From: Candidatus Omnitrophota bacterium
GTDB lineage: Bacteria; Omnitrophota; Gorgyraeia; Zapsychrales; Aceulaceae
Direction: 5' to 3'
DNA: 64,000 bases
Assembly (NCBI GenBank): GCA_028693815.1
Contig: JAQUUP010000005.1
Coordinates: 104 to 64,103, forward strand
Part shown: in pieces, positions 2,563 to 43,497 of the stretch
Layout of the letters: the number at the start of each line of letters is the position of its first letter
Position numbering within the stretch: the first letter of the stretch is position 1
Notes under the pieces: generated by a model
Told to the model about the DNA's origin: nothing
Seen by the model: only the letters and a program-made list of their open reading frames with translations
Databases searched by the model: none
Made by a program: the position numbers and the translations under genes

Positions 2563-3344
2563 TGAATGATTTTCTTAGTAAAATTTTATTGCATAAAAAA
2601 GAATTGATCTTAAAAAAGAAAGATTTCTTTAATGCTCTTAAAAATAAATTAAAAGATAAAGAGCATTCATGTTATTCTCTTTTTGAAAAAGCGATTTCTT
2701 CTCCTGGAAAAATTAGTCTGATCGCTGAAATAAAAAAAGCTTCGCCATCGAGAGGCCTGATTTGCAAAGAATTTAGTGTTTCTGGTCTTGCAAGAAAATA
2801 TGTTAAAAGTGGCGCTGCGGCAATATCAGTTTTGACAGAAGAAAAATTCTTCTTAGGAAAACCGTCTTATGTTCGAGAGGTCTCTGATCATTTTGCCATT
2901 CCTGTTTTAGCCAAAGATTTCTTTATTGATGAATTGCAAGTTTATGAGGCGTTTGCTCAAGGGGCAAGCGCTATTCTTTTGATTGTAGCTATTCTAAAGG
3001 ATGAAGAGATTACGCATTTGATGAAAATCGCTCACAATCTCGATATGGATTCTCTTGTTGAAGTTCATGATGAAGAGGATCTTAAGCGGGCAGTTGATTT
3101 AGGCGCTAAAATTATAGGCGTTAATAATCGCAATCTTAAAACGTTTGAGGTTGATTTTAAGAATTGTGAAACACTTGTTCCAAGAATTCCAAAAGACAGA
3201 ATCATTGTTGCGGAAAGTGGCATTAAAACGCACGAGGAAATAGAAATATTAAAAGCCTTAAGGGTCGATGCCGTTTTGATTGGAGAAACATTTTTGCGAT
3301 CGGCTGATGTTGAGACAAAAATTAAGGAGATTATGAATGGGTAG
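2562..3344 (+). CDS. trpC: indole-3-glycerol phosphate synthase
   Basis: 260 aa with an EIKKASPSRG motif. Start and stop overlap the neighbouring genes, which suggests translational coupling. Confidence 0.85.
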   Translation: MNDFLSKILLHKKELILKKKDFFNALKNKLKDKEHSCYSLFEKAISSPGKISLIAEIKKASPSRGLICKEFSVSGLARKYVKSGAAAISVLTEEKFFLGKPSYVREVSDHFAIPVLAKDFFIDELQVYEAFAQGASAILLIVAILKDEEITHLMKIAHNLDMDSLVEVHDEEDLKRAVDLGAKIIGVNNRNLKTFEVDFKNCETLVPRIPKDRIIVAESGIKTHEEIEILKALRVDAVLIGETFLRSADVETKIKEIMNG

Positions 3345-3963
3345 GGTCAAGATTTGCGGCATAACAAATAAAAGAGATGCGCTTTGTGCCAGTTCGTTGG
3401 ACGCATGGGCATTAGGATTTATTTTTTATAAAAAAAGTTCACGTTATATCAGTCCTCAGGATGCTCAGAACATTATTGAGGCTTTGCCAAAGAATGTTCT
3501 GTCGGTTGGTGTCTTTGTTGATGCGCAAAAAGAAGAAATTGACGCTGTTATTAAAGATTGCAGGTTAAAAGTTGTCCAGTTTCATGGCAACGAAACACCT
3601 TTGTTTTGTTCTCAATTTAAAGCTGTTAAGACGATTAAGGCTATTCGCATTAAGAGCAAAGAGGATCTTGTAAAAGCTTTAAAATACAAAACAGATTATT
3701 TGCTTTTTGATACTTTTCAAAAAGATGCTTTTGGTGGCACAGGCAAAGTTTTTGACTGGGAGATTCTTAAGAGTTCAAAATTAAAGGGAAGAAAGATTGT
3801 TCTTTCTGGAGGCCTGAATCCAAAGAATATTGCTGGGGCAATTTCTTCGGTGAAAGCTTATGCGTTTGATGCTTCAAGCGGGGTGGAACGTAGGCCTGGC
3901 AAGAAGTGTCAGAGGTTGTTAAAGAAATTTTTTTCAGAAGTAAATATAAAAAATAAACAATAA
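3337..3963 (+). CDS. trpF: phosphoribosylanthranilate isomerase
   Basis: 208 aa with a KICGIT N-terminus typical of PRAI. It is the last gene of the 5' half of the trp operon. Confidence 0.85.
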   Translation: MGRVKICGITNKRDALCASSLDAWALGFIFYKKSSRYISPQDAQNIIEALPKNVLSVGVFVDAQKEEIDAVIKDCRLKVVQFHGNETPLFCSQFKAVKTIKAIRIKSKEDLVKALKYKTDYLLFDTFQKDAFGGTGKVFDWEILKSSKLKGRKIVLSGGLNPKNIAGAISSVKAYAFDASSGVERRPGKKCQRLLKKFFSEVNIKNKQ

Positions 3964-4045
3964 AAAACTAACAAATTCCCAGCAATATTCAATGCGCTGG
4001 GCTTTGTTTATTTTGCATTGTAAATTCTTGAGAGGAGTTGAAAGA

Positions 4046-4714
4046 ATGAGCAAGATCGTTTTTGATATTGAGACTTTTGGACAGGATTTTGATTCTTTAG
4101 ATGAGAAATCGCAAGAATATTTCTTGAGGTTTGCAAAGACCGATCAAGAAGCTGAGGACGCAAAAAATAGCCTTTCGTTTTATCCTGTGACAGCTCAAAT
4201 TATTACAATTGGCATGTTGGATGTGGATACCAATAAGAGCTTTGTTTTTTTTCAAAATGACGGAAAAACTCAGAAGATTCAAGAGGATAATGTTGTTTAT
4301 ATTTCGGGAAGCGAAAAAGAAATCTTAGAGCATTTTTGGAAGCTGATGGACAAGGCTAATATTTTTATTACGTTTAATGGGCGCACGTTTGATTGTCCGT
4401 TTGTCATGATTCGTTCGGCTATCAACTCTGTGCGGGCGACAAAGGATTTGATGCCGTATCGCTATAAGCAAGGACCGCATGTTGATCTGATGGATCAGCT
4501 TACTTTTTATGATGCAATGCGAAGAAAGTTTAGCCTTGATATGTGGTGCAAGGCTTTTGGTATTCAAAGCCCAAAAGAAAAGGGGATAACTGGTCTTGAA
4601 GTTAAAGATTTCTTTAAAGATGGCCGCTATATGGATATTGCGCGTTATTGCGCCAGAGATCTTTTGGCGACCAAAGAACTATATATGTATTGGGATAAAT
4701 ACTTAAAGGTATAG
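4046..4714 (+). CDS. RNase H-like (DEDDy) 3'-5' exonuclease, PolB-exonuclease-related family protein
   Basis: The translation contains FDIET (an Exo I DxE motif) and YCARD (an Exo III YxxxD motif). An AGGAG RBS lies 8 nt upstream of the ATG at 4046. The ORF track opens at 3992, but that start lacks an RBS. Confidence 0.6.
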   Translation: MSKIVFDIETFGQDFDSLDEKSQEYFLRFAKTDQEAEDAKNSLSFYPVTAQIITIGMLDVDTNKSFVFFQNDGKTQKIQEDNVVYISGSEKEILEHFWKLMDKANIFITFNGRTFDCPFVMIRSAINSVRATKDLMPYRYKQGPHVDLMDQLTFYDAMRRKFSLDMWCKAFGIQSPKEKGITGLEVKDFFKDGRYMDIARYCARDLLATKELYMYWDKYLKV

Positions 4715-4764
4715 GTGTATTTAGATTTTTTCTTTTTCCGATCTTTCCTTGCCTACCTTGTTAT

Positions 4765-4786
4765 TTGCCAAACCATATGCTATATT
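4765..4786 (+). promoter_or_regulatory. putative promoter with extended -10 (TGcTATATT) and upstream TTGCCA
   Basis: The sequence ATGCTATATT occurs here and is nearly identical at 5113 and 15963. The -35/-10 spacing is non-canonical, so the extended -10 is the main signal. Confidence 0.35.
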
Positions 4787-4792
4787 TTAATT

Positions 4793-4992
4793 GAGCCGAT
4801 AAAGGTAAACTCGGGGAAACCCGAGGGCACAAAACCACAGACCTAAGTTGTCTGAAGCACTTTGCGCCCTTTGTCCGGAGTGGCAGAAGGGTAATCGAAC
4901 CGATTGGGTAGACGTGGATGGCAAGAGGGTGGCTGGGTTACCGAAGAGTAGTAGAATAGAGGAGAAATCCTAGCTTTTGTCGGCTCTTTTTT
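4793..4992 (+). ncRNA. candidate structured ncRNA or riboswitch-like element of unknown family
   Basis: A long-range closing helix pairs GAGCCGAUAAA (4793) with UUUGUCGGCUC (4976-4986) and ends in a U-tract. Internally there is a GAAA-tetraloop hairpin (CUCGGG-GAAA-CCCGAG), a further hairpin (CAGAC...GUCUG) and G/C-rich segments. No long ORF overlaps it. Confidence 0.45.
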
Positions 4993-4999
4993 CTTAAAA

Positions 5000-5037
5000 C
5001 TCGCAATTTCCTATAAATGGCGAGATTTTTTATTTTT
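5000..5037 (+). terminator. intrinsic terminator-like hairpin plus T-tract
   Basis: The sequence is CTCGCAATTT-cctat-AAATGGCGAG followed by ATTTTTTATTTTT. Confidence 0.5.
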
Positions 5038-5094
5038 AGAGCTAAAACTCTCTATAATTCAATAGGTATATCGCAATAATTTTATGCTCAAGAC

Positions 5095-5122
5095 TTGAAA
5101 TTCTCTTAAAATATGCTATATT
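5095..5122 (+). promoter_or_regulatory. putative sigma70 promoter of the giant1 gene (TTGAAA-16-TATATT with TGc extended -10)
   Basis: TTGAAA lies at 5095-5100 and TGCTATATT at 5114-5122. Confidence 0.45.
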
Positions 5123-5273
5123 TGATACGAAATTCAGTAAGCTATATAAGTTTTTATTCTATTTCATTTATTCTCGCCACGGAAAAAAGTGTAACCTGTT
5201 TTTTAAAAATACGGTATAAATTTTTTTCAACTTATGGCCCTTGCGGCAAGCTAATCTAATGAGGAGAAAACCC

Positions 5274-8200
5274 ATGATTGTGTATTTCGAAAAGTCTCAA
5301 AAAAGTCTTGCGTCTAAAATTGTATCTATTTTTATTGCTGTTTGTTTTCTTTTAAGCTCTATCGCGCCTAGCTACGCCCAGAGTCTGTCTGCGCTTCCTG
5401 TGCCAGGGACGATTGTTAGCCCAACACCCGGATTCTTTCCTGTGTTGGTCAGAGCTTTAGAGATCAACCCAGAGAATCCTTTGCAATTTGGCTTTATTGT
5501 AGACAACGGAGACACTGAGTTTCAAGGAGAAGACCTTACCGAAGAAGCCAAGAAGCTGATTCGCTATTTTCTTGCCTGTCTGACAACTCCTGAAGAAGAT
5601 ATGTGGGTCAACCTTTCTCCTTATGAAGAAAACCGTATTGTTTCTGATAATCTCGGCAAAACTCAAATGGGCCGCGACCTTTTAGCTCAAGACTATATTC
5701 TAAAGCAATTGACCGCTTCTCTGATTTATCCAGAGGACGAGCTTGGAAAGAAGTTTTGGGACAAGATCTACAAAACAGTTTATGAGAAGTTCGGTACCAC
5801 AGACATTCCTCTTAATACCTTTAATAAGGTCTGGATTGTCCCAAAGACAGCTAAAGTTTATGAGCATGATAATAGAGTTTTTGTGATTGATAGCAAGCTT
5901 GAAGTTATGATGGAAGAGGATTTCCTCGCGCTATCGCGCTCGCGTGAAATGTTAAAAGTGAAAAGTGAAGCGCACGATTCACGCTTCACGAGCGACGCTT
6001 CACAAAACAAATTGGCCTCAGATATTGTCCGCGAAATCCTTATTCCAGAGATTGAAAAAGAAGTCAATTCTGGCAAAAACTTTGCTAATCTTCGTCAGAT
6101 CTATAATGCTATGATCTTAGCGGCTTGGTACAAGAATAACCTTAAAGAGAGCCTTCTAGGCCAGATCTATGTGGATCAGGGAAAGACCAAGGGTATTGAG
6201 ATTAAAGATACAGATGCCACCCAAAAAATCTACGATCAATACATCGAATCTTTCAAAAAAGGTGTCTACGACTATATAAAGGTAGAGCATGATGCCCAAA
6301 CAGGCAAAAATATCCCAAGAAAATACTTTTCTGGTGGTGCCACGGCTTTTTCTTCAAGCGGCATTCCGTTAAGAGGTATGGTTCAGAATGTTGTGCCAGC
6401 GAGAAGCGATATGGATGCAAATGGTGTCCATGGCCGAAAAGGTGGCGATTTTACAAAAATTGATATTGGGCTTGGTGAGATTGGGGATGTGGAAGGTCAA
6501 TCCAGCTCCGGCATTGGAAAGCCATCAAGAAAAGATATTGCCGAAAGCGTTGAGAAAGGGATAACGTTTGTTCTCGAAGAAATAGATGCCGGAGGAGAAG
6601 TTGATTTATCTGAGACATTGCGTGGAATGGGATTTGCGACATCATCTGATGCGGAGAGCCTGAGATTTTTTTTGGAAAACCGCTGGACGGTTTCTTTGGG
6701 TTCCTGGGAGATGATGGATATTGATCAGACTACTGGTCACATGGTTGTTAATTTAGTAAAGGCTAGTTTTGCCAGCTCGGGTATTCTGACTGTTGATGAT
6801 TTTATGAATGATATCATTTCAATTATTGGATCTGCAATGTCAGATTTAGAAGGAGTGCATCGTATTTATATTTCTCCAAAAGGAAGCGGCTCTGGGTGGA
6901 ATTTCTTATCTGTTGAAGAATTTAAAAAGGTAATGGCAAAAGATTTTTCTGGGGTTGGAAATGTTTTAAGTTTGATGTCTAGCCTTGATGTTGGTTTGCT
7001 ATACGGAAAATCAATTTTTGTTCAATTATCAGAAGGTGAGAATAGATACTTAGCTTCTTATAATGGCAAGAAAATGCCTGGAGATGTAACAATCCAAGAA
7101 GCACTTAACAAAAAAGTTCAAGACCTTAACAATCTTCGCAAGTTGGGAGTTGAAGTGACTCAAACCCCACCCACCGCTGCAGCGATCTCATTGCTAAAAA
7201 CTCCTAGTGATGTTGTAGCATCTGCGGTTGAAGAATATGGCATGTTTCTGCAGAATACTTCAGGAAGATTTGAGGGAGACGATCAAAATACCCCATATCG
7301 TGATACTGATGAAAAAATTCGATGGCCTGAAGGTAAATGGCCTTTGTACATTTTCTTAGGGGATTTAACGGCCAATGGGTTGGGGCTTCGTCTTAATGAC
7401 GAAAAGACAGCTTATGTGGGTGTTCAGTTGGGATCTTATGGAACGTGGACAGATAATTTTCAGGATATTTTCATTCCAGTTGAGATTAAAGTCGTGTCTT
7501 CAGGGCTAAAAACTTATCACGATGTCGTAAGTTATTTAAGTGGGCAAGAAGGGGTAAACTTTGATAATATTTTCGGAAAATTTGGTGACGAGAAGATCCC
7601 TTATAAGGATTGGGGATCTTATAGTTCTCAGTTGCCATCGGAAATCTTTGCGATTGGAAGAGAGGGCTACGTGTTTCAAAAAGGTCCTGATGGGTATGAG
7701 CCAACAGATAGCCCAGGTGATTTCGATGAGCCGGCTGATCCCCTTAAGCAATTGCCAACGGCTACTAGAGCCTCTTCAGACATAAAGACTGATACTAAGC
7801 CTTTTGGAGGTGGAAAAATTTTATTTAGCCGTTTTGATCCTCGAGCAAAGGAAACGGTTCATGAGTTTGGGTTTCCTGGCCATGATCCTGATTGGACGTT
7901 TAAAGAGTCTGGAAACACTGTTTATGACTCTTCTGCTGAGATTATAGATAGAAGAAACGCATTATTAGGAGGAAAAAAATCCAGCTCAAATGTTACCAAT
8001 CGTTTGCAACTCGAGAACGCCATTAGACAATTTATCGTTACAGTTGTCAGAAAAGCATCAATTGATTCAATTAGTCAGATTCATATTGATAAAACACCAG
8101 TAGGAAATGGTGTGGAGCCTGGGGATTTTATATGGATTCAATCTCGTGTCGAGGAAGCTTATGGAGTTTCTGTTGGCGAGGAGTTTTCAATTTTACCAGT

Positions 8201-8900
8201 AAGAAATCTTGTTGATTTTGTTGAGAAAGAAAGCCCGATCCTTATTTCTCAAAGAATCATTGAAGATCCTTCTGTTCAGGTTCGCATGATCGATGCTAAA
8301 AGGCCACTTGATACAGACCAGATTGAAAAATTGGCATTTGGTGGACAGATTACAAGCCTTTATTCTCCTAAAGAGGAAAAGACATTGCATATTTTGGTTC
8401 AAGGAGTTGGAGGGACTCGTGGCGTTGTAAGAGCGTATGTAGAAAACGGGAATACTGTAGACTCTAATGTTACGCTGTATAATCCATCTGAAGACGCAAT
8501 TCTTCTTAGAGGTTTTAGAGTCTTTGAAGAGATTCGTTTTGCTTTAGTGAAAAATGGACTTGGTGATGCGATGATGGGAAAACATTATCCTAATAATCAA
8601 GTTTCGTCAAATACTGGTGGTATTAATCTTGATGCTGGGCTTTTGGATCTTCAAATTGAACGCGATGGAAACGGTATGCCTTTGCCATTTGCGCAACAAC
8701 CGCTTGGAATAATGAATATCCAAGGATTTTCATTTTATATTATGAGTGTCACAAATGTTCCGAGCATGCTTTTGATTTCAGGGTTGGTGCCTAATAATCA
8801 GGATGAGAAAACCGTCTCAGCTGAAAGCACGTTTGAACAAGCGTTGGTTGAAAAGAAGTTCCGATTTGTAGCAGATGACCCACGCAGAATATGTGCTTAA
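5274..8900 (+). CDS. giant secreted protein (1208 aa), paralog 1, with the shared N-terminal module
   Basis: A GAGGAG RBS precedes the ATG at 5274. The product has a signal peptide (MIVYFEKSQKSLASKIVSIFIAVCFLLSSIAPSYAQS). The ORF is uninterrupted. The N-terminal ~370 aa align clearly with the 16017 protein (LPVPG, ENPL, WVNLSPYEENRIV, GRDLLAQDYILKQ, FNKVWIVPK, NKLASDIVREI, NFAxLRQIYNA, PRKYFSGG). Confidence 0.85.
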   Translation: MIVYFEKSQKSLASKIVSIFIAVCFLLSSIAPSYAQSLSALPVPGTIVSPTPGFFPVLVRALEINPENPLQFGFIVDNGDTEFQGEDLTEEAKKLIRYFLACLTTPEEDMWVNLSPYEENRIVSDNLGKTQMGRDLLAQDYILKQLTASLIYPEDELGKKFWDKIYKTVYEKFGTTDIPLNTFNKVWIVPKTAKVYEHDNRVFVIDSKLEVMMEEDFLALSRSREMLKVKSEAHDSRFTSDASQNKLASDIVREILIPEIEKEVNSGKNFANLRQIYNAMILAAWYKNNLKESLLGQIYVDQGKTKGIEIKDTDATQKIYDQYIESFKKGVYDYIKVEHDAQTGKNIPRKYFSGGATAFSSSGIPLRGMVQNVVPARSDMDANGVHGRKGGDFTKIDIGLGEIGDVEGQSSSGIGKPSRKDIAESVEKGITFVLEEIDAGGEVDLSETLRGMGFATSSDAESLRFFLENRWTVSLGSWEMMDIDQTTGHMVVNLVKASFASSGILTVDDFMNDIISIIGSAMSDLEGVHRIYISPKGSGSGWNFLSVEEFKKVMAKDFSGVGNVLSLMSSLDVGLLYGKSIFVQLSEGENRYLASYNGKKMPGDVTIQEALNKKVQDLNNLRKLGVEVTQTPPTAAAISLLKTPSDVVASAVEEYGMFLQNTSGRFEGDDQNTPYRDTDEKIRWPEGKWPLYIFLGDLTANGLGLRLNDEKTAYVGVQLGSYGTWTDNFQDIFIPVEIKVVSSGLKTYHDVVSYLSGQEGVNFDNIFGKFGDEKIPYKDWGSYSSQLPSEIFAIGREGYVFQKGPDGYEPTDSPGDFDEPADPLKQLPTATRASSDIKTDTKPFGGGKILFSRFDPRAKETVHEFGFPGHDPDWTFKESGNTVYDSSAEIIDRRNALLGGKKSSSNVTNRLQLENAIRQFIVTVVRKASIDSISQIHIDKTPVGNGVEPGDFIWIQSRVEEAYGVSVGEEFSILPVRNLVDFVEKESPILISQRIIEDPSVQVRMIDAKRPLDTDQIEKLAFGGQITSLYSPKEEKTLHILVQGVGGTRGVVRAYVENGNTVDSNVTLYNPSEDAILLRGFRVFEEIRFALVKNGLGDAMMGKHYPNNQVSSNTGGINLDAGLLDLQIERDGNGMPLPFAQQPLGIMNIQGFSFYIMSVTNVPSMLLISGLVPNNQDEKTVSAESTFEQALVEKKFRFVADDPRRICA

Positions 8901-8929
8901 CCAAATTCAACCTACGAGGTTGAACGCGG
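8899..8929 (+). repeat. REP-like palindromic repeat, family 1, copy 1
   Basis: AACCAAATTCAACCTACGAGGTTGAACGCGG. It begins at the giant1 stop codon. Confidence 0.85.
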
Positions 8930-9011
8930 CATCATATTAAGCAGGTATTTATTGAATATTTGTTACCCACGAAGAGTTAGTTTTCTAAGCTAACGGGTAG
9001 TAGGTGTAAGA

Positions 9012-9044
9012 GGGGCCCCCGAAAATTCGGGGGCCCTTTTTTTT
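9012..9044 (+). terminator. strong rho-independent terminator
   Basis: GGGGCCCCCG-aaaatt-CGGGGGCCC followed by eight T. It lies downstream of giant1. Confidence 0.85.
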
Positions 9045-9071
9045 GGCTCAACAAGGCAAGTTATGCTAATA

Positions 9072-9104
9072 AACCAAATTCAACCTACGAGGTTGAATGC
9101 GGTT
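9072..9104 (+). repeat. REP-like palindromic repeat, family 1, copy 2
   Basis: AACCAAATTCAACCTACGAGGTTGAATGCGGTT. Confidence 0.85.
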
Positions 9105-9167
9105 ATTCTAAGGTTTTAGCCTAAAAATAAATTTGGCTAGATATCCTTTTATGATATAATGCCATTC

Positions 9168-9473
9168 ATGAGCGAGAAATTAATTCGTATTTATAAGAAA
9201 TTTCATGTTGATGAAGTCAAAGAGCATGTATTGGTTTGTGGTGATTTGTCGGCTAATTGTTCAAAATGCAATGCCGTTGGCATTAAGACTAACGCAGACA
9301 AATGTCCTGAATGTGCAACAAAGTTTAAGTATGTGACCTTCCGAAATGTTAGAGGCAATATGCCAAAGATTCATAAGCTGATTGATGAAAGATCAGATCT
9401 AGTTTTTATTGATTATGATGATTTTAATCGTGCGACAGGATCTTTAAAGATCGAAGGATTATTTAATGACTAA
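9168..9473 (+). CDS. small zinc-ribbon protein (Cys cluster CxxxxxxCxxC...CxxC), hypothetical
   Basis: The ORF is about 100 aa and lies between REP copies 2 and 3. A TATAAT-like box lies upstream. The ORF track starts at 9159, but the Met at 9168 also fits. Confidence 0.55.
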   Translation: MSEKLIRIYKKFHVDEVKEHVLVCGDLSANCSKCNAVGIKTNADKCPECATKFKYVTFRNVRGNMPKIHKLIDERSDLVFIDYDDFNRATGSLKIEGLFND

Positions 9474-9485
9474 ACTGATTCAGGC

Positions 9486-9518
9486 AACCGAATTCAACCT
9501 ACGAGGTTGAACGCGGTT
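9486..9518 (+). repeat. REP-like palindromic repeat, family 1, copy 3
   Basis: AACCGAATTCAACCTACGAGGTTGAACGCGGTT. Confidence 0.85.
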
Positions 9519-9540
9519 AAAAAAGATAATATGATGACAC

Positions 9541-10215
9541 ATGACAACATTACGTAAAAATCCTTTAGTTAAAGGGAAGATTTATCATATTTTTAATCGA
9601 AGCATTGCTAAGTTTGTTATTTTTAATGATGAAAAGGAATTTGCGCGCATGCTTGAAACAGTAAAATATTATCAGTCAAAAGACTGCGGGGACAGTTTGT
9701 CACATTTTATAAAAATGAAAGAGTCCGAAGCTGTTAATCGTCAGAATAAAATAAAAATTAAGTTGCTTTCTGATAAGCTTGTCGATATTATAGCTTTTTG
9801 TTTAATGCCAACCCATGTCCATTTTGTTTTAAAGCAGCTTAAAGATGGTGGTATTTCAATTTTTATGAGCAATATCCAAAATAGCTATACTCGATTCTTT
9901 AATCTTAGACATCAGCGAAAAGGTCCACTCTGGGAAGGAAGATTTAAGAGTGTTTTAGTTGAAGATGATGAGCAGCTGCTTCATTTAACGCGATATGTTC
10001 ATCTTAATCCGGTTACAGCCGGCTTGGTCGAAAAGCCAAAGGATTGGTTTGCGTCCTCTTATAAGCAATATTTAAAACAAGGCGTGGCAGATTTCTCAAT
10101 GTGCAACTTTTCTGATATTTTGGATATTGATTCGGGCAGCTATCAAGAATTTGTTAATGACCAAATTTCCTATCAAAGGGATTTGGCAGGAATTAAACAT
10201 TTAGTTTTTGATTAG
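9541..10215 (+). CDS. IS200/IS605-type Y1 (HUH) tyrosine transposase, REP-associated (RAYT-like)
   Basis: 224 aa. It has the HxH motif (MPTHVHFV) and the catalytic-Tyr region (LWEGRF...LLHLTRYVHLNPV) typical of TnpA_REP/IS200 transposases. Family-1 REPs flank it. Confidence 0.8.
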   Translation: MTTLRKNPLVKGKIYHIFNRSIAKFVIFNDEKEFARMLETVKYYQSKDCGDSLSHFIKMKESEAVNRQNKIKIKLLSDKLVDIIAFCLMPTHVHFVLKQLKDGGISIFMSNIQNSYTRFFNLRHQRKGPLWEGRFKSVLVEDDEQLLHLTRYVHLNPVTAGLVEKPKDWFASSYKQYLKQGVADFSMCNFSDILDIDSGSYQEFVNDQISYQRDLAGIKHLVFD

Positions 10216-10219
10216 AAAG

Positions 10220-10251
10220 ATCGAATTCAACCTACGAGGTTAAACGCGGTT
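10220..10251 (+). repeat. REP-like palindromic repeat, family 1, copy 4
   Basis: ATCGAATTCAACCTACGAGGTTAAACGCGGTT. Confidence 0.85.
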
Positions 10252-10268
10252 TAAGTATGGCTTAAAAG

Positions 10269-10300
10269 ACCGAATTCAACCTACGAGGTTAAATGCGGTT
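10269..10300 (+). repeat. REP-like palindromic repeat, family 1, copy 5
   Basis: ACCGAATTCAACCTACGAGGTTAAATGCGGTT. Confidence 0.85.
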
Positions 10301-10325
10301 ATAAGCAAGAAAATGGTAAATAATT

Positions 10326-11465
10326 ATGATCGATAAAAAACGCCTAATTAAGTTGACTCAAGAAGTCTTGCAGATTAATTCTGAAAATCCTCCGGGAAAT
10401 GAGCTTGCCCTTTCAAAATTTATTGAAAAAGATATGCGGTCTTTGGGTCTTAGCGTGAAAACTTATACATTTGCAAAGGCACGTCCAAATGTTGTGGCTA
10501 TTTTAAAAGGAAAAAATCGCAAACTTGCGGCAAAAAGATCTATTTTGATTACGCCGCATTTTGATACTGTGCCTGCTGGCAAGGGATGGAAATTTGGTCC
10601 GTTTTCAGGACAAATTAAAAACGGACGCATTTATGGGCGAGGCGCTTCGGATGACAAAGGAAACTTAGCCTGTGCGATGGAAGCGATGCGTAGCTTGGTT
10701 GAGGATAAAGTTAGTTTTAATTATGATATTATTTTTGCAGCAACAGTTGACGAAGAAACTGGTAGCAAAAAAGGCATTATTCCGCTTATTGAAAAAGGTA
10801 TCATAAAACCAGAAGTGGCGCTCGTGCTTGATTCGGATGAATTTTATTCTATTGTGGCGCAAAAGGGATTGATGCATATGCTTATTCAAGTTTTTGGAAA
10901 GAAAGCACACGGAGCTTATAATTGGCGTGGGATCAATGCCATCGAGATTGCCTCAAAAATTATTCAAGATTTAAAAGCACTAGAGTTTCGCTATAAAAAG
11001 CATGAATTTTTGCGGCCGCCAACGATTAATATTGGGACAATTCAGGGTGGAGATAAGGTGAACATGGTTGCTGATTTTTGTGAATTTTCTTGTGATTTTC
11101 GTTTTTTGCCAGGAATGAAGCATCAAGAAATTCTTAAAGATGTTAAATCTATTGTCTCGCATCATGCAAAAAGATCAAAGATGATTATTGATGATCTTCA
11201 GATGCCGTATGAGATCGATCCAAATCATGACTTAGTTAAGCTTTATAGTCAAAGTTGCAAAAAAATGAAAAGGCCTGCAATTCTAAAAGGGAGCGAAGGC
11301 GCGACGGTAATTACGTTTTTTCAGAAAAAAAAGATTCCTGCGATTGCGACAGGATATGGAAGTACTAAGACCGCCCATTCGACCGATGAATATGCCGAAG
11401 TCAAAAAACTCTACGATGGAGCAAGGGTGTTAGAACAATTTTTAAAGGATTTTGATACGCGATGA
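10326..11465 (+). CDS. M20 family metallopeptidase (ArgE/DapE-like deacylase)
   Basis: 379 aa with a GRGASDDKG motif and His/Asp/Glu metal ligands typical of M20. Confidence 0.8.
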   Translation: MIDKKRLIKLTQEVLQINSENPPGNELALSKFIEKDMRSLGLSVKTYTFAKARPNVVAILKGKNRKLAAKRSILITPHFDTVPAGKGWKFGPFSGQIKNGRIYGRGASDDKGNLACAMEAMRSLVEDKVSFNYDIIFAATVDEETGSKKGIIPLIEKGIIKPEVALVLDSDEFYSIVAQKGLMHMLIQVFGKKAHGAYNWRGINAIEIASKIIQDLKALEFRYKKHEFLRPPTINIGTIQGGDKVNMVADFCEFSCDFRFLPGMKHQEILKDVKSIVSHHAKRSKMIIDDLQMPYEIDPNHDLVKLYSQSCKKMKRPAILKGSEGATVITFFQKKKIPAIATGYGSTKTAHSTDEYAEVKKLYDGARVLEQFLKDFDTR

Positions 11466-12169
11466 AAAAAATAATTATTTTTTTAATTTTATTTGTCATG
11501 TGCGCTGTATCTGCTTTTGCGCAAGCATCAGATTCTTCTTATGATCAATTTAACGGAGAACAGATCACCTATTGGATCAAAAGTTTGGGTGTCAACCAAG
11601 GGGATGCGACGCTTTCGTTTGATGGAACCGCGACGATTAATGGGCAGGAAGTCTATCTTTTGACATTCAAGGCTACAGCGAGGAATTTCTTGGATGTTGA
11701 AAAGATTTATGCTGATAAAAAAGATTTTTATCCGGTTCGTGTTGAACGTGATCTTAATATTTGGGGTTCGAAAGAAAAGATAACAGAATCTTATGATCAG
11801 ACAAAATTTATTGTTACTGTTGAAAAGAGAACAGAAAGCAGTCCTAATCCAGAAAAGACGGTGATTAAAAAAGAAGGAAGGATTGACAACATCTATTGTT
11901 TTATTTATCGATTTCGAAAAAACAAGATTTTTGATATTGGAAATTCGTTTAAAATGAATTTGCCGACAAAGGATGTTTCGATTAAAATAGCAAAGAAAAC
12001 AAATCTTAAAATTGATGGAAAAAGTTACGAGACGTATTATTTGCACACTGTTCCGACACAGTATCAGCTTTGGTTTGACACTTTAGATGATGTGATTCCG
12101 CTTAGGATCGACAAGCCAGCCGTGTTCGGAGGAACATCAATGGTGATGACGGGATATAAGAAAAACTAG
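11462..12169 (+). CDS. secreted hypothetical protein with signal peptide
   Basis: The N-terminus is MKKIIIFLILFVMCAVSAFAQA. The start overlaps the upstream stop. Confidence 0.6.
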   Translation: MKKIIIFLILFVMCAVSAFAQASDSSYDQFNGEQITYWIKSLGVNQGDATLSFDGTATINGQEVYLLTFKATARNFLDVEKIYADKKDFYPVRVERDLNIWGSKEKITESYDQTKFIVTVEKRTESSPNPEKTVIKKEGRIDNIYCFIYRFRKNKIFDIGNSFKMNLPTKDVSIKIAKKTNLKIDGKSYETYYLHTVPTQYQLWFDTLDDVIPLRIDKPAVFGGTSMVMTGYKKN

Positions 12170-12262
12170 AGTTTATAGAGTTTATAGGGTTAGTAGCGTT
12201 TATGGTATTAACGCAACAAACCCAACAAACCCAACAAACTAACAAATACAACAAACTTGTTT
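12170..12262. repeat. short tandem repeats (AGTTTATAG x2; AACAAAC-type x5)
   Basis: Direct repeats visible in caacaaacccaacaaacccaacaaactaacaaatacaacaaact. Confidence 0.7.
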
Positions 12263-12266
12263 TATT

Positions 12267-13445
12267 ATGATACAACCTAATAAAAGCGGACATTTTGAGG
12301 AGTTTGGAGGACGCTTTGTTCCTGAGACGTTAATGTCGTTAGTTGTGGATTTAGAAAAGACATTGAATGCTCTTCGAAAAGATAAGAAATTCAAGAAAGA
12401 ATTTGATTTTTATCTTACGAATTATGCAGGCCGGCCAACCAATTTATATTTTGCTTCTCGCTTAAGCGAAAAACTAAAACCATTAAAAGTTTATCTGAAG
12501 CGTGAAGATCTTCTTCATACGGGCGCTCATAAAATAAACAACACTCTTGGGCAGATCTTAGTCGCACGGTCTATGAAAAAAACGCGCATTATTGCCGAGA
12601 CCGGAGCCGGTCAGCATGGAGTGGCTACGGCGACAGCTGCGGCCCTTTTTGGTTTGAAGTGTGATGTGTATATGGGCGCAAAAGATGTTGAGCGTCAGGC
12701 CTTAAACGTTTTTCGAATGAAACTTTTAGGAGCAAATGTTATTCCAGTAACAAGCGGAACGCAAACTCTTAAAGATGCGATGAATGAAGCTATTCGTGAT
12801 TGGGTGACGAATGTTGAAAATACTTTTTATATTATCGGTTCTGTGGCAGGGCCTCATCCGTATCCTACGATGGTGCGTGAATTTCAGAAAATTATTGGTG
12901 TTGAGGCACGTAAGCAATTTTTGGCTAAAGAGAAAAAACTTCCTGATTATTTGCTTGCTTGTGTTGGCGGTGGCTCTAATGCGATGGGACTTTTTTATCC
13001 ATTCTTTGATGATCAAAAAGTGAAGATGATTGGTGTTGAGGCAGCAGGTTTGGGGCTAAATACTGATAAGCATTCTGCTGCTGTTATCAAAGGGGAGATC
13101 GGGGTTTTGCATGGAAGTAAAAGCAAGCTTTTGCAAACGCCTGACGGACAAATTCGAGAAGTTCACTCGATTGCCGCTGGCCTTGATTATCCTGGCGTTG
13201 GCCCTGAGCATGCTTATTATAAGAAAATAGGACGTGCTGAGTATGTTGGTGTTGATGATAAGCAAGCAATTAAGGGATTGAAATTACTTTGTGAAACAGA
13301 GGGTATTATTCCAGCGCTTGAAAGCGCACATGCCATTGGATATTTAGAAAAATTAGCCAAGAAGGTCAAACGTAAGTCAAGTGTGGTTGTTTGTTTGTCT
13401 GGGCGTGGGGATAAGGACGTACACGAGCTCAAGGGAATTATTTGA
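12267..13445 (+). CDS. trpB: tryptophan synthase beta chain
   Basis: 392 aa with the [12 protein letters not shown]-lysine motif and a GGGSNAMG motif. Confidence 0.9.
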
Positions 13446-13447
13446 AG

Positions 13448-13540
13448 AAACCCCACGTCGCTGAGAATCGCCCCTGGGGTAATAGTCAAGAATCAAGACA
13501 ATTGAAACCCCGATGCCCTTCGGGCACGGGGTAAATTCGC
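13448..13540 (+). repeat. double-hairpin dispersed repeat, family 2, copy A
   Basis: CCCCA..TGGGG hairpin, then TAATAGTCAAGAATCAAGACAATTGAAA, then CCCCGATGCCC-ttcg-GGGCACGGGG, then TAAATTCG. This architecture recurs at 30139, 56795 and 43462. Confidence 0.8.
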
Positions 13541-13542
13541 GC

Positions 13543-13590
13543 TAGATGACTTGACGCTCCTTTTAGTCGCGCAAGTCATGCGCTCATTTA
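13543..13590 (+). other. imperfect hairpin (GATGACTTGaCGC...GCGCAAGTCATGC)
   Basis: An 11-bp stem with one bulged base and an 11-nt loop. Confidence 0.5.
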
Positions 13591-13664
13591 AAGATGTTCA
13601 TGAGTTGAGGGAAATAATTTGAGAAAATTAATGTCGCTAAAAGATGTTTCTAGGGATTGTGAAA

Positions 13665-13697
13665 AACCGCGTTTAACCCCGCGGGTTAAACGCGGTT
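13665..13697. repeat. perfect 33-nt palindrome AACCGCGTTTAACC-ccgcg-GGTTAAACGCGGTT
   Basis: It is self-complementary and shares the AACGCGGTT tail with the family-1 REPs. Confidence 0.8.
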
Positions 13698-13728
13698 ACT
13701 AGCGCTTATGTAAAATTGGAGCTCACTT

Positions 13729-14523
13729 ATGAATCGTATTGATCAAAAATTTAAAAGTTTAAGTAAGCAGAAGAAAAAAGCGTTTATTGCTTTTATTACG
13801 GCAGGAGATCCAAACTTAAAAACAACCGAAGAGTTGGTGTTGGCTTTTGAAAAATCTGGAGTTGATATCGTTGAGCTTGGGGTGCCGTTTTCTGATCCTT
13901 TGGCAGATGGGCCAACCATTCAAGAAGCTTCTTATCGGGCGCTTAAAAATAAGGTCAGCATTATAAAAATTCTTGATTCGGTTAAAAGGATTCGAAAAGT
14001 TTCTGAGATTCCAATTTGTTTAATGACGTATTATAATCCTGTATTTCATTTTGGGGATACAAAATTTGTCGCGCAGGCAAAAGCGGCAGGTGTTGATGGT
14101 GTTATTATTCCTGATCTTCCGCCGGAGGAGGCCTCTGAATTGATTCAAGAGGCGCGAAAAAAGGATTTTTCAACAATCTTCTTTTTATCACCAACAACAA
14201 AAAAAGAGCGTATCAGCATTATCGAAAAAGCTTCGAGTGGGTTTATTTATTATGTTTCGATCGCAGGGGTGACTGGCGCACGCAAGGCTTTGCCTAAGAA
14301 TTTAAAAGAAAATTTAAAGAAAATAAAGCGTTCAATCAAAAAGCCACTATGCGTTGGGTTTGGCATTTCTAACGCACAACAAGCAAAAGAAATTTCAAAG
14401 TGCTGTGATGGTGTTATTGTCGGAAGCGCGATCATCAAAGAGATTATAAAGAATAAGGGCAAAAAGAATTTAGTTTCAAATGTTACCCGTTTTGTGAGTA
14501 GCCTTTCTGCAGCTATTAAATAG
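13729..14523 (+). CDS. trpA: tryptophan synthase alpha chain
   Basis: 264 aa with an IVELGVPFSDPLADGPTIQ motif. Confidence 0.9.
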   Translation: MNRIDQKFKSLSKQKKKAFIAFITAGDPNLKTTEELVLAFEKSGVDIVELGVPFSDPLADGPTIQEASYRALKNKVSIIKILDSVKRIRKVSEIPICLMTYYNPVFHFGDTKFVAQAKAAGVDGVIIPDLPPEEASELIQEARKKDFSTIFFLSPTTKKERISIIEKASSGFIYYVSIAGVTGARKALPKNLKENLKKIKRSIKKPLCVGFGISNAQQAKEISKCCDGVIVGSAIIKEIIKNKGKKNLVSNVTRFVSSLSAAIK

Positions 14524-16016: not shown

Positions 16017-19000
16017 ATGGTTCAGAAAATTAAATCAAAAAGACTAAGATCCTTTTTTAGGGGCGCGTCTATTTTCGTGCTTGTGTGCTTTGTGCAGACT
16101 TGCATTGTGCCTTTTGGCATTCCGCAGGCTCATGCGCAAGGGCTTTTGAGTCTTCCTGTGCCTGGCGCTAGTGTGTCTTTGACGCCTGCATTTTCTCCTG
16201 CTACTTTGATTGGTCTAAAAATTCATCCTGAAAATCCATTAAGAGTTGATTTTGTGGTAGATAGCGGAGATTTTGGGCTTTCCAATCAAGCATTTAAGAG
16301 CGAGACCGAAAAATTGATTAAGTATTTCTTGGCAGCACTCACAATTCCAGAAAAAGATCTCTGGGTCAATCTTTCTCCCTATGAGGAAAATCGAATCGTT
16401 GCAGACAATTTTGCTCAGACAGAAATGGGCAGAGACTTGCTTGCCCAGGATTATATCTTAAAGCAGATTACGGCGTCATTGATTTATCCAGACGACGAAC
16501 TTGGAAAAGAGTTTTGGAAACGCATCTATCAAAAGGCTTATGAAGAGTATGGAACAGCGAATATCCCTGTTGATGCGTTTAATAAGGTATGGATTGTGCC
16601 CAAAAAGGCTGTTGTTTATGAAAATGGGGATAGGGTTTTTGTGGCGGAATCGTCTCTATCCGTTATGGTGGAGCAAGACTATTTAGCCATGACAAAGCAT
16701 AGTCAAGGTAGCTCCGACGTTTCAGTCGGAGTCCCGACATCCGACGTTGGTTATAAATCAGGTAAGGAAGTCGGATCGTCGGGAAAGGTGATGCTGGAAA
16801 CGGACTATGTTGCTTTGCAAGCAAAGCAACAAGTATCTAGTGAAGAGCATCTAGTATATGGTGATAATCAGCAACCAAATACCATATCCCAAATACCAAA
16901 TACGGATAATAAATTAGCTTCCGACATTGTCCGCGAAATCATCATTCCTGCCCTTGAAAAGGAAGTCAATCAGGGCAAAAACTTTGCCCAGTTACGTCAA
17001 ATCTATAATGCCGTTATTTTAGCCGCATGGTTTAAAACAAATCTAAAAAATGCTTTGCTCAACGAAGTTTATTCTGATCAATCAAAAGTTTCAGGTGTTG
17101 ACGTTGAAGACAAAAAGATTACGGATAAAATTTATCAAAGATATCTAGAGGCTTTCAAAAAAGGTGTATGTAATTTTGTCAAAGTCGAATACGACGAGAA
17201 TGAGCATAAAAATGTTCCGAGAAAATATTTCTCAGGGGGAACGGACTTGGCTCTTTCTTCTAGCGGAATTTTAGAGAAGACGAATCAATCGTCTTCGGTC
17301 ATTCCAAGCGGGAAGTGTGCTCTTGTTGAGCAGAATTTTAGTGTTTTTTCTTCTACTGTTGTTGAGAAAATTAAGATTAAAGAGGAAGAGCCGTTTTCTG
17401 ATATTTTAAAGGATGTATCTGATAATGAGCTTTTTATTTTAAAAGATATTCTTCGTAATCTTAATGTTCATTTTGCAGAAAGTGAATCAGATTTGATTAA
17501 CGTTGAAAAGTTTTCTTTTAAAAATATTATTCTTAAGCTTAAGAAAATTCTGGATAAACATGGTGATGAAAAGAATAAACTAGATCTCCAAGATCCTAGA
17601 TCTGAAGCATTGATTGGAAGCATTAAGCTTCAGGATGATGGCATTATTTCTATTGTGCACCCGATGTTTACAACTAGTGGTGTTCATGTTGAAAATTATC
17701 CTATTGTTGTTTTTGCACAAAATATAGCCGCTGCAAATTATGAGCAAGTACGGATTCGTCATTGGATCAATTTTTTTAGAGAGCACGATAAGAATTTAGA
17801 TATAGCTATTAAAGATGGAAGATTTGGTACAATAATAAAATTTTGGATTGAAGGCAGCGATGCTCTTGGTTTAAAGAGGCCAAAAGTTGTTGCCAAGCGA
17901 AAAGAAGCATATCGAGCAAAGGTATTAGAATTTAAACAGATAGGGGCCTCTGGCAGAAATGGTTCGGGATCAAAGAATTTTAATGCTTTTCAGAGTAATG
18001 GAAAGCGGGATATCGATTTTGAGTACGATGATGAATTTGTTGTTAACTCTATTTTAGACATTTCTCCACAAGAACTTGGCAAAGTTTCTCGTGAACAATT
18101 GATTCAAAAGCTTGCTTCTTTAATGGCTATGTTAGCGGGAAAAGGTAGTCAGGAGATGGAGCTTTCAACATCAAAGGACAAAGAGCCTTTGTGGCTAGAT
18201 TTTCGAACGGAATCAGCTATTGAGAGGAATTTTTCATCATTTGAACTTTTTCTTGAAGAAGTTTTTGGGCAGGAAGGAGACAAGGAAAAGATTTCTCCTT
18301 ACAAAGCTTACTTTTTTTCAAAAGGACATAGAAAAAATGGTTCTAATGGTAAAAGTTTCTTTACTCCTCGAAAAATTGTTTTAACAATTGATAGAAAGCT
18401 CTTAAAGAATTTTATTATGAAATATAAAGAAAAACATGCTGGAGAAGGTAACGAGTCTGACCGCGTCTATATAGATGAAGATAATTTGAGAAAATATTAT
18501 ATTCTTTCGCTCTGGCTTGATCGAATGATTGAGCTTTTTGAGAAAGAAAGAGTTGTTGAGCGTTATGGTCGTATTGTTGTTGATAAAGAAAAGTTTGTTG
18601 GCGGTCGAGCTTATTCGGAAGACTTTAAATCTTTTGTTGAATTAAAGTCTGAAAAGAATATTTTTATTAATCTGGATGGAACAATTGCTGTTTATGATAG
18701 AGAAAGCGATCAGAAAGGTTATCGTTTTTATGATGATGCCGATAAGCTTTATGATGAGCTTAAAACTTTAAAGGACAATGGATTTAATATTATTCTTTGG
18801 AGTTCAAATTATGAGTGGTTTATTCGTCATAATTTTGTTCGAGAGTCTAGACATAAAAAATGGATAGACCTCTTTAGTTTTATAATCACTCAGGAAAATT
18901 ATCGTGCACCAACAGATGTGGAGCTATCTGAAACTTATTTATCAGAAGAGTTTGCGGATGCTAAAAAACTTTATGGAATTTTTGACTCTTTTAAGGATGT

Positions 19001-30138: not shown

Positions 30139-30236
30139 CGAATTTACCTCATGCCCGAAGGGCATTGGGGTTTCAATTATTTTGATTCTTGAACGTTACC
30201 CCATGCCCGAAAGGCATTGGGTTGAAATAGAAGTAT
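30139..30236 (-). repeat. double-hairpin dispersed repeat, family 2, copy B (inverted orientation)
   Basis: The reverse complement reads CCCAATGCC-tttcg-GGCATGGGG, then TAACGTTCAAGAATCAAAATAATTGAAA, then CCCCAATGCCC-ttcg-GGGCATGAGG, then TAAATTCGG. Confidence 0.8.
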
Positions 30237-43450: not shown

Positions 43451-43461
43451 CTTAAGGAAAT

Positions 43462-43497
43462 CCCGATACCCTTTGGGTACGGGATAAATTCGGACTA
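43462..43497 (+). repeat. single-hairpin unit of the family-2 repeat, copy D
   Basis: TTAAGGAAATCCCGATACCC-ttt-GGGTACGGGATAAATTCGG. It has the same flanks as copies A-C, and its stem differs by compensatory changes. Confidence 0.75.

Follow-up and report, generated by a model that had tools for sequence, protein, structure and literature searches.

The 64,000-nucleotide stretch of Omnitrophota DNA analysed here (hereafter the window; contig JAQUUP010000005.1) contains a trp operon with non-trp genes in its middle, and one of these encodes a 224-aa protein resembling the tyrosine transposases associated with repetitive extragenic palindromes (REPs), known as RAYTs. This gene is placed among copies of a 33-nt hairpin repeat, and gene and hairpins together constitute a candidate REPtron, or REP/RAYT system, which is the subject of this work. 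The locus comprises the following features, in window coordinates; hairpin scores come from a covariance model trained on the window copies and related copies.

8898-8900, plus strand: stop codon of the giant1 gene, overlapping REP1 by 2 nt
8899-8931, plus strand: REP copy 1, REP1 (AACCAAATTCAACCTACGAGGTTGAACGCGGCA), 42.3 bits
9011-9046, plus strand: resident intrinsic terminator of the giant gene (GC-rich hairpin and T run), outside the element
9072-9104, plus strand: REP copy 2, REP2, 50.3 bits, downstream of the native terminator and upstream of the zinc-ribbon -10 box
9168-9473, plus strand: zinc-ribbon gene, 101 aa, between REP2 and REP3
9474-10325, plus strand: REP3-RAYT-REP4-REP5 cassette, 852 nt, at the zinc-ribbon/M20 junction
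9486-9518, plus strand: REP copy 3, REP3, 49.8 bits, identical to the consensus sequence
9541-10215, plus strand: gene for the RAYT-like Y1 HUH endonuclease, 224 aa, with PTHVH, LWEGRF, RYVHLNP and WFASSY
10219-10251, plus strand: REP copy 4, REP4, 45.8 bits, stem weakened by G24A
10268-10300, plus strand: REP copy 5, REP5, 49.0 bits
10326, plus strand: start of the M20 peptidase gene, 25 nt past REP5
13665-13697, strand undefined (palindrome): REP variant (AACCGCGTTTAACCC-CGC-GGGTTAAACGCGGTT), 41 bits on both strands

A 33-nt hairpin repeated around a single gene

Searching the window with the 33-mer at up to three mismatches recovers exactly five matches, all on the plus strand, and none in 100 dinucleotide shuffles. 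The five copies had been noticed in an earlier inspection of the DNA (hereafter the sequence-only reading), which placed the last two at 10220 and 10269; they begin one base earlier, at 10219 and 10268. Copy 1, described there as abutting the giant1 stop codon, overlaps the last two bases of the TAA (open reading frame (ORF) end 8900). Each unit consists of a 15-nt arm, the expected ACG loop and a second 15-nt arm. Specifically, the consensus stem has an outer helix of 5 bp, a 2x2 internal mismatch (AA at positions 6-7 opposite CG at positions 27-28) and an inner helix of 8 bp closed by the loop. The variable positions, G/A at position 5 and C/T at position 27, had been thought to change in pairs; the five copies, however, show every one of the four combinations, the two positions are not pairing partners, and the T27 variant closes only one of the two internal mismatches. 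Folded as single-stranded DNA (ssDNA), copies 2, 3 and 5 form the full hairpin (-7.2 to -10.7 kcal/mol, z-scores of -3.7 to -5.5), whereas copies 1 and 4 are weaker, with copy 1 forming only the inner 8 bp above a degraded outer stem.

A repeat search of the window revealed a sixth, diverged copy at 13665-13697. This variant, which also folds fully, is a perfect 15-bp palindrome (-17.4 kcal/mol as ssDNA, with a z-score in the same range) that keeps the outer arms of the family and carries compensatory changes at pairs 10-24 (C-G to T-A) and 15-19 (T-A to C-G). With its filters off, the covariance model finds these six copies only in the 64 kb, the next best match having E = 1.6. A further hairpin, at 665-697 within a MurA-like ORF, is not a REP.

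REP2 ends 63 nt before the zinc-ribbon start, and a promoter-like site (TTGGCT-16-TATAAT) lies between the two; the zinc-ribbon stop is followed after 12 nt by REP3, REP3 after 22 nt by the start of the 224-aa ORF, the stop of this ORF after 3 nt by REP4, and REP4 after 16 nt by REP5. The start-to-start spacings of 173, 414, 733 and 49 nt, the last being the REP4-REP5 tandem, and the enclosure of genes agree with the view that this is not a CRISPR array. The resident terminator stands about 80 nt after REP1 and 25 nt before REP2. Within REP3, a second promoter-like site (TTGAAC-17-TATGAT) does not exceed regional chance, and Rfam, searched at gathering scores and also at E <= 1, holds no family for the hairpins and gives sub-threshold matches only to the native terminator.

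The 224-aa protein as a predicted class-2 Y1 HUH endonuclease

The ORF at 9541-10215 is confirmed and matches Pfam Y1_Tnp at 36.9 bits against a gathering cut-off of 23. The HxH and catalytic Tyr motifs noticed earlier are borne out: His92, His94 and Tyr152 align to the corresponding residues of the Escherichia coli REP transposase TnpAREP (PDB 4ER8) and are, together with N156 and P157, invariant in 24 homologues. Additionally, MPTHxH, RKGPLWEGRFK, HLTRYxHLNP and W-SSY are invariant or nearly so, and the window ORF is intact with all residues that are invariant across the 24 homologues. The best NCBIfam model is REP_Tyr_transpos (NF047646), with the match limited to residues 78-169. The best PDB match by sequence is 4ER8 (E = 7e-7), and an AlphaFold (AF2) model with a pLDDT of 83.6 again finds 4ER8 as its best fold match (E = 2.8e-8), followed by the ISDra2, IS608 and IS200 transposases.

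A Y---NP signature marks class 2 (TnpAREP-like) and Y---Q marks IS200 TnpA (PMC6006769). Because RYVHLNP carries Y---NP, the protein falls by this criterion into class 2, apart from IS200 TnpA, and from sequence and model together we regard it as a class-2 Y1 HUH endonuclease. Neither of the two signs by which the sequence-only reading would have recognised a plain insertion sequence (IS) is seen: the protein stands apart from ordinary IS200 TnpA, and one more hairpin lies outside the island, at 13665. Compared by published description, the key motifs (WE, Y[IV]HLNP, SS tail) and the length of about 220 aa are nearest to subclass 2.1. Distinct from the Asn/Asp of the published consensus, the residue before HuH is an invariant Thr among the homologues, and Pfam finds no helix-turn-helix (HTH) in the 224-aa protein.

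Homologues are numerous, with more than 2,100 word-indexed at about 55% identity, for which the best annotation is "transposase", and 677 clusters at 50% identity in a profile search (E <= 1e-30). The clade is found mainly in Omnitrophota, other lineages of the Planctomycetes-Verrucomicrobia-Chlamydiae (PVC) group, Elusimicrobia and Patescibacteria. Each 90% protein cluster is confined to one genomic context, and no close relatives occur among 72,556 plasmids or 50,697 phages.

Pairing of gene and hairpin across homologous loci

The association of gene and hairpin was compared at 80 metagenome loci, a few contigs found by exact protein and the gene-bearing blocks of Genome Taxonomy Database (GTDB) genomes (labelled with the prefix L below). 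When hairpins are counted only if they have at least 8 bp and a 3-nt loop and lie no more than 160 nt from the gene, 57 of 89 loci have one or more, and 38 have them on both sides. Under looser criteria a hairpin is found at nearly all loci, with upstream and downstream copies of the same lineage-specific type. These types (e.g. caacctCGTaggttg, ccacccCTGgggtgg, acacccCCGgggtgt and tgcaccTACGCggtgca) share the apex ACCY-NNN-RGGT, and related types with CTG, CAG, CCG or GAC loops contain no GTAG anywhere. Flanks in direct and in inverted arrangement both occur, many loci being inverted; the all-direct ACG arrangement of the window recurs at L156, L183, L184 and L193. The strand of the ACG loop, set against local GC skew, divides 55 versus 33 loci (p = 0.025), a weak bias among loci that are not independent.

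Covariation was assessed in 120 distinct hairpins picked by the 4-bp apex alone, to avoid circularity. Watson-Crick pairing at the unselected positions 5-10 is 0.99, 0.85, 0.81, 0.70, 0.59 and 0.53, versus 0.14-0.47 in slid controls, with two to four pair types per stem position. In the stems, G-T mismatches do not outnumber C-A mismatches, as expected under constraint at the DNA level. An AACC...GGTT foot at the stem base is the commonest symmetric 4-mer but occurs in 18 of 138 hairpins and is no defining feature. No conserved synteny surrounds the RAYT-like gene across homologues, so vertical inheritance at a fixed locus is not family-wide.

Two side observations concern individual loci. Contig Ga0315294_10000001 (532,701 nt) carries two divergent RAYT-like paralogues, L112 and L188, with different types of flanking hairpin (ccgttcCTGgaacgg and ccacttGCGacgtgg). 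At an Omnitrophota locus (L101, 3951-3989), the hairpin upstream of the RAYT-like gene overlaps a metH-like stop codon, as REP1 does that of giant1.

Solo hairpins dispersed in other genomes

The exact 19-mer core of the hairpin (TTCAACCTACGAGGTTRAA) was found in 99 8-kb blocks among GTDB representative genomes, a set that does not include the window's own contig; only exact-core blocks were fetched, so the counts are lower bounds. In several metagenome-assembled genomes (MAGs) the core occurs at 5 to 11 or more sites per genome on 5-9 separate blocks. The multi-block genomes are Omnitrophica WOR_2 GWF2_43_52, other Omnitrophota, Planctomycetia-labelled MAGs, Elusimicrobia, Saccharibacteria and Roizmanbacteria (both Patescibacteria). 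In these MAGs the palindrome is extended by genome-specific outer stems, and the majority of copies lie outside long ORFs. The gene is present in 8 of the 99 blocks, with the hairpin beside it there. Inverted or nested doublets of the core also occur, e.g. at L007, L014, L055 and L090. The 19-nt core is identical in several phyla despite enzymes that are only 42-55% identical, and copy numbers in the relatives are comparable to those reported for Group 1 and Group 4 RAYTs and below those of E. coli or Pseudomonas. The single 19-mer matches in Acidobacteriota, Terriglobia, Deltaproteobacteria, Polyangiaceae and two Gammaproteobacteria fall within long ORFs; we discounted them as coding or coincidental.

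The 19-nt hairpin also opens a longer element, about 130-150 nt in length and present in several copies, in a number of MAGs labelled Planctomycetia or Omnitrophota. This element contains a second long hairpin (ACTTACACATAAAYTCACG / CGTGAGTTTATGTGTAAGT), reaches seven copies in one MAG, has no Rfam match and was seen at L009, L022, L032, L035, L038, L045, L048, L057, L059, L076, L079, L085 and L098. In Omnitrophica WOR_2 GWF2_43_52 (L049 and L092), solo hairpins lie about 100-150 nt upstream of two giant1 paralogues and share an identical 20-nt left flank (tttcctcgacggtaaattta).

Empty and filled sites in syntenic relatives

Homologues of the zinc-ribbon protein are found in close relatives only, and three of these allow a comparison of the junction that holds the cassette in the window.

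L189, GCA_964648665.1, 74-78% nucleotide identity to the window: gene absent; zinc-ribbon stop and M20 start overlap (AATGATTAA)
L192, Candidatus Aceula meridiana, about 70% nucleotide identity: gene absent; stop and start separated by 2 nt
L193, GCA_018400235.1, 68.8% over the aligned stretch: gene present; cassette at the same junction in the same orientation

In both L189 and L192 the gene order is trpC-trpF-exonuclease-giant-zinc ribbon-M20-DUF3108-trpB-trpA-M16, and neither has a match to the hairpin model in 20 kb. The resident terminator is kept in these REP-less relatives, and L189 lacks a counterpart of REP2 between the terminator and the zinc-ribbon gene. L193, by contrast with these empty sites, has two hairpins upstream and two downstream of the gene, all ACG-direct, and is collinear with window positions 9145-10393. 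The zinc-ribbon gene, which the sequence-only reading had counted as part of the island, is indeed enclosed by REP2 and REP3; because relatives carry it with or without the RAYT-like gene, it is a resident host gene rather than a part or cargo of the element.

Zinc-ribbon identity groups the window and L189 as sisters (0.89) and places L192 and L193 further away (0.64-0.71). Since the gene is thus present in two genomes that are not sisters, two events are required: either it was gained once and then cleanly lost twice, or it was gained on two occasions at one junction. The shared position would mean either clean loss twice or site-directed insertion twice. The RAYT-like proteins of the window and L193 are mutual closest known relatives (63% identity, versus at most 59% for all others), and since this value is near that of the zinc-ribbon proteins (68%), the protein identities would favour orthology with later loss of the cassette. 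The hairpin arms are uniform within each genome and differ between the two (CCRAATTC...GAAYGCGG in the window, CCATTTC...GAATTTGG in L193), a pattern that indicates turnover or homogenisation after the split rather than static relics.

Interpretation of the locus

Taken together, these results make it likely that the locus is a REPtron, that is, a gene for a RAYT-like Y1 HUH ssDNA endonuclease lying among copies of its cognate REP hairpin, with the gene itself probably low-copy and retained by the host. The proposal of a REP/RAYT island made in the sequence-only reading gains support from the gene-hairpin pairing at about 90 loci, from the dispersal of gene-less hairpins in related genomes and from the lack of hairpins in the gene-less syntenic relatives.

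Several observations weigh against this interpretation. The hairpin has no canonical 5' GT[AG]G foot, GTAG itself being confined to the minus strand, where it spans the loop and 3' arm. Of the residues with which E. coli TnpAREP reads GTAG, W94 alone is kept (as W131); Q95, E100, H101 and R104 align to E132, S137, V138 and E141. The REP_Tyr_transpos score of 68.4 bits lies below the equivalog cut-off of 80. Within the window, all six copies are at most 5 kb from the gene and the remaining 59 kb have none; the five copies are all direct, with no inverted doublets (REPINs); and copy 4 folds at shuffle level (z = 0.0). A window-specific 26-mer (AATTCAACCTACGAGGTTRAAYGCGG) has no match in JGI metagenomes. 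Because the GTAG foot and most of its reading residues are missing and the NCBI score is under the cut-off, we read the locus as a non-canonical REP/RAYT system.

The main alternative is an autonomous IS200-like IS, in which REP3 and REP4/REP5 would be the subterminal hairpins of the left and right ends and the 852-nt unit would transpose whole. Its appeal is that the cassette is there either whole or not at all, at a junction only 0-2 nt long in relatives, that the hairpins are direct on both sides like IS200/IS605 ends, and that the fold resembles IS608 and ISDra2 TnpA. We nevertheless consider it unlikely. IS200/IS605 elements typically occur as several near-identical transposase units and encode a core-only protein of about 150 aa, often with tnpB. 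The present protein, however, has 224 aa and extra helices, no tnpB is found among the neighbouring genes in the window, a translated search of the window gives one gene copy, and homologue clusters each remain in a single genomic context. Additionally, the hairpins stand apart from the gene in the window itself (REP1, REP2 and the 13665 variant) and as solo copies on many contigs of other genomes, and at many homologous loci they are inverted rather than direct. The signature Y---NP likewise belongs to class 2 and not to the Y---Q of IS200 TnpA (PMC6006769).

It is quite improbable that the hairpins are host regulatory elements, such as 3'-end stabilisers of mRNA or terminators, whose origin is unrelated to the gene and whose adjacency is incidental. 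REPs of E. coli do stabilise upstream mRNA, and REP1, REP3 and REP4 start 0-12 nt past stop codons on the coding strand, with one copy being terminator-like on the minus strand; the coding strand, however, has no T tract. Moreover, the same hairpin type flanks the homologous gene in dozens of unrelated contexts and in both orientations, gene-less relatives with the same operon have none, no Rfam family matches, and the lack of any excess of G-T over C-A mismatches counts against a constraint on RNA only. A secondary effect of the hairpins at the RNA level is possible. That the gene and hairpins are a decaying relic of a past invasion with no present activity is highly improbable: the weakened stems of copies 1 and 4 and the confinement of copies to the neighbourhood of the gene would suit it, but the ORF is intact with every invariant residue, and the arms are homogenised in the genome and differ from those of the orthologous L193 cassette.

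For the REPtron, we propose a mechanism drawn from established knowledge of E. coli TnpAREP and of IS608 and ISDra2 TnpA. The 33-nt unit would form a hairpin while the DNA is transiently single-stranded, and the enzyme would recognise it, probably via the conserved apex ACCT-ACG-AGGT. Tyr152, with a metal held by His92 and His94, would then cut the ssDNA beside the hairpin, and rejoining of strands would move or copy hairpin units to near and distant intergenic sites. The gene itself would not multiply, and its expression probably relies on read-through from the host operon. We infer the binding, the cleavage, the ssDNA substrate and the direction of transfer by analogy with these enzymes.

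Comparison with known REP/RAYT and IS200/IS605 systems

The best match in sequence and fold is the E. coli REPtron (TnpAREP = YafM, PDB 4ER8; subclass 2.2 of Quentin, Group 2 of Bertels). Both have the HuH histidines, the W motif and Y---NP, and in both a low-copy gene lies among its own imperfect palindromes. An internal mismatch is also common to the two, AA opposite CG in the window hairpin and AA/GC in the E. coli REP hairpin (PMC3733652). In contrast, identity to E. coli TnpAREP is only 16% in the structural alignment, the protein is longer (224 versus 165 aa), and its model adds a predicted helical insertion (about residues 45-78) and a predicted long C-terminal helix. Unlike the E. coli system, the window has no 5' GTAG foot, has lost most of the GTAG-reading residues, carries direct copies instead of inverted pairs, and encodes an enzyme below the NCBIfam cut-off.

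In its W[EQ], Y[IV]HLNP and SS tail (WFASSY) and in its length, the enzyme resembles subclass 2.1 (Group 1 of Bertels, TIRYT), whose median length is 238 aa and in which the flanks are reportedly either not REP-like or terminal inverted repeats (TIRs) with GGGG[AT][CG]A[CG], and a C-terminal HTH domain is present (PMC6006769, PMC5581495, PMC3733652). The wide, patchy taxonomic spread and the dozen or so copies per genome are likewise as in Group 1, for whose flanking repeats 12 occurrences are reported. The window gene is nevertheless set apart from subclass 2.1, by published description, in having clear flanking hairpins, no Pfam HTH and a Thr before HuH.

With IS200/IS605 TnpA (IS608, ISDra2) the window shares the Y1 HUH fold and, within the window, hairpins on both sides in the same orientation; it differs in carrying Y---NP and not Y---Q, in the single copy in the window, in the lack of tnpB and in the gene-less solo hairpins of other genomes. 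Pseudomonas REPIN-RAYT systems (Group 3) have a gene that mobilises short palindromes, which in the window family would be so by inference, and each gene co-evolves with its own hairpin type, as the L112 and L188 paralogues appear to do. Distinct from Group 3, the window has no inverted doublets, and copies in relatives number tens rather than hundreds.

The kind of system is thus already known, namely REP/RAYT, and the present locus differs from known examples in having neither GTAG foot nor GTAG readers and a conserved apex instead, in its longer enzyme, in its uncultivated phyla and in a hairpin core that crosses phyla. To our knowledge, nearly all work on REP/RAYT systems has been done in Proteobacteria, and their definition is centred on the GTAG foot. 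In a non-exhaustive survey of the literature, in which figures of REP consensus sequences were not covered, we found no publication that prints the hairpin sequence or ties RAYT to these phyla. It is conceivable, though less likely than not, that the window represents a large undescribed RAYT-like clade with non-GTAG REPs, the apex ACCY-NNN-RGGT, a cross-phylum core and a junction-sited cassette. A REP-gene-REP cassette may therein sit exactly between translationally coupled genes while harming neither.

The locus and its roughly 90 relatives extend the logic of gene plus hairpin to uncultivated phyla with a different recognition element, a conserved apex on a covarying stem, and offer a natural series of enzyme/hairpin pairs for studying hairpin recognition by Y1 nucleases. 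Close relatives, with their empty, filled and orthologous sites, give a rare before-and-after view of a REPtron and its accompanying hairpins. In current annotation the genes are labelled "transposase" and the hairpins are unmarked; the hairpin covariance model would flag them.

Neighbouring genes and other hairpins

From about 2600 to 14500, the trp operon (trpG-D-C-F ... trpB-A) is broken by six non-trp genes, namely an RNase H-like exonuclease gene, the giant gene, the zinc-ribbon gene, the M20 peptidase gene, DUF3108 and the RAYT-like gene; all except the last are conserved in L189 and L192. At 0.32-0.35, the cassette is only a little lower in GC than its neighbours (0.38-0.42), which is no sign of a recent foreign source. 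Upstream of the 1,219-aa giant1 gene, a c-di-GMP-I riboswitch lies at 4794-4945 (RF01051, 65.4 bits against a cut-off of 35), in a stretch about 80% conserved in L189 and L192. A second giant-gene paralogue begins at about 15.4-16 kb and matches giant1 at 71-76% nucleotide identity over parts of its length (5548-6146 and 16306-17048).

A second intergenic hairpin family (GAAACCCCGATGCCCTTCGGGCACGGGGTAAATT), with no Rfam match, occurs at 13504-13537 (plus strand) and at 30141-30174 and 30195-30228 (both minus strand), with looser relatives near 13443-13480 and 43456-43490. Two tandem units of this family produce a 72-nt inverted repeat (13468-13539 / 30139-30210) that is 85% complementary. The trpB-trpA spacer is 285 nt long in the window, versus 8-17 nt in relatives, and this region (13443-13729) contains no fewer than three kinds of hairpin, namely the second family, a palindrome at about 13546-13590 and the REP variant at 13665. 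In L193, the spacer between the giant and zinc-ribbon genes (2395-2450) contains an inverted doublet of AACCCCGCGGGTT-type hairpins whose apex is as in the 13665 variant, which suggests a putative second REP subtype common to the window and L193 genomes.

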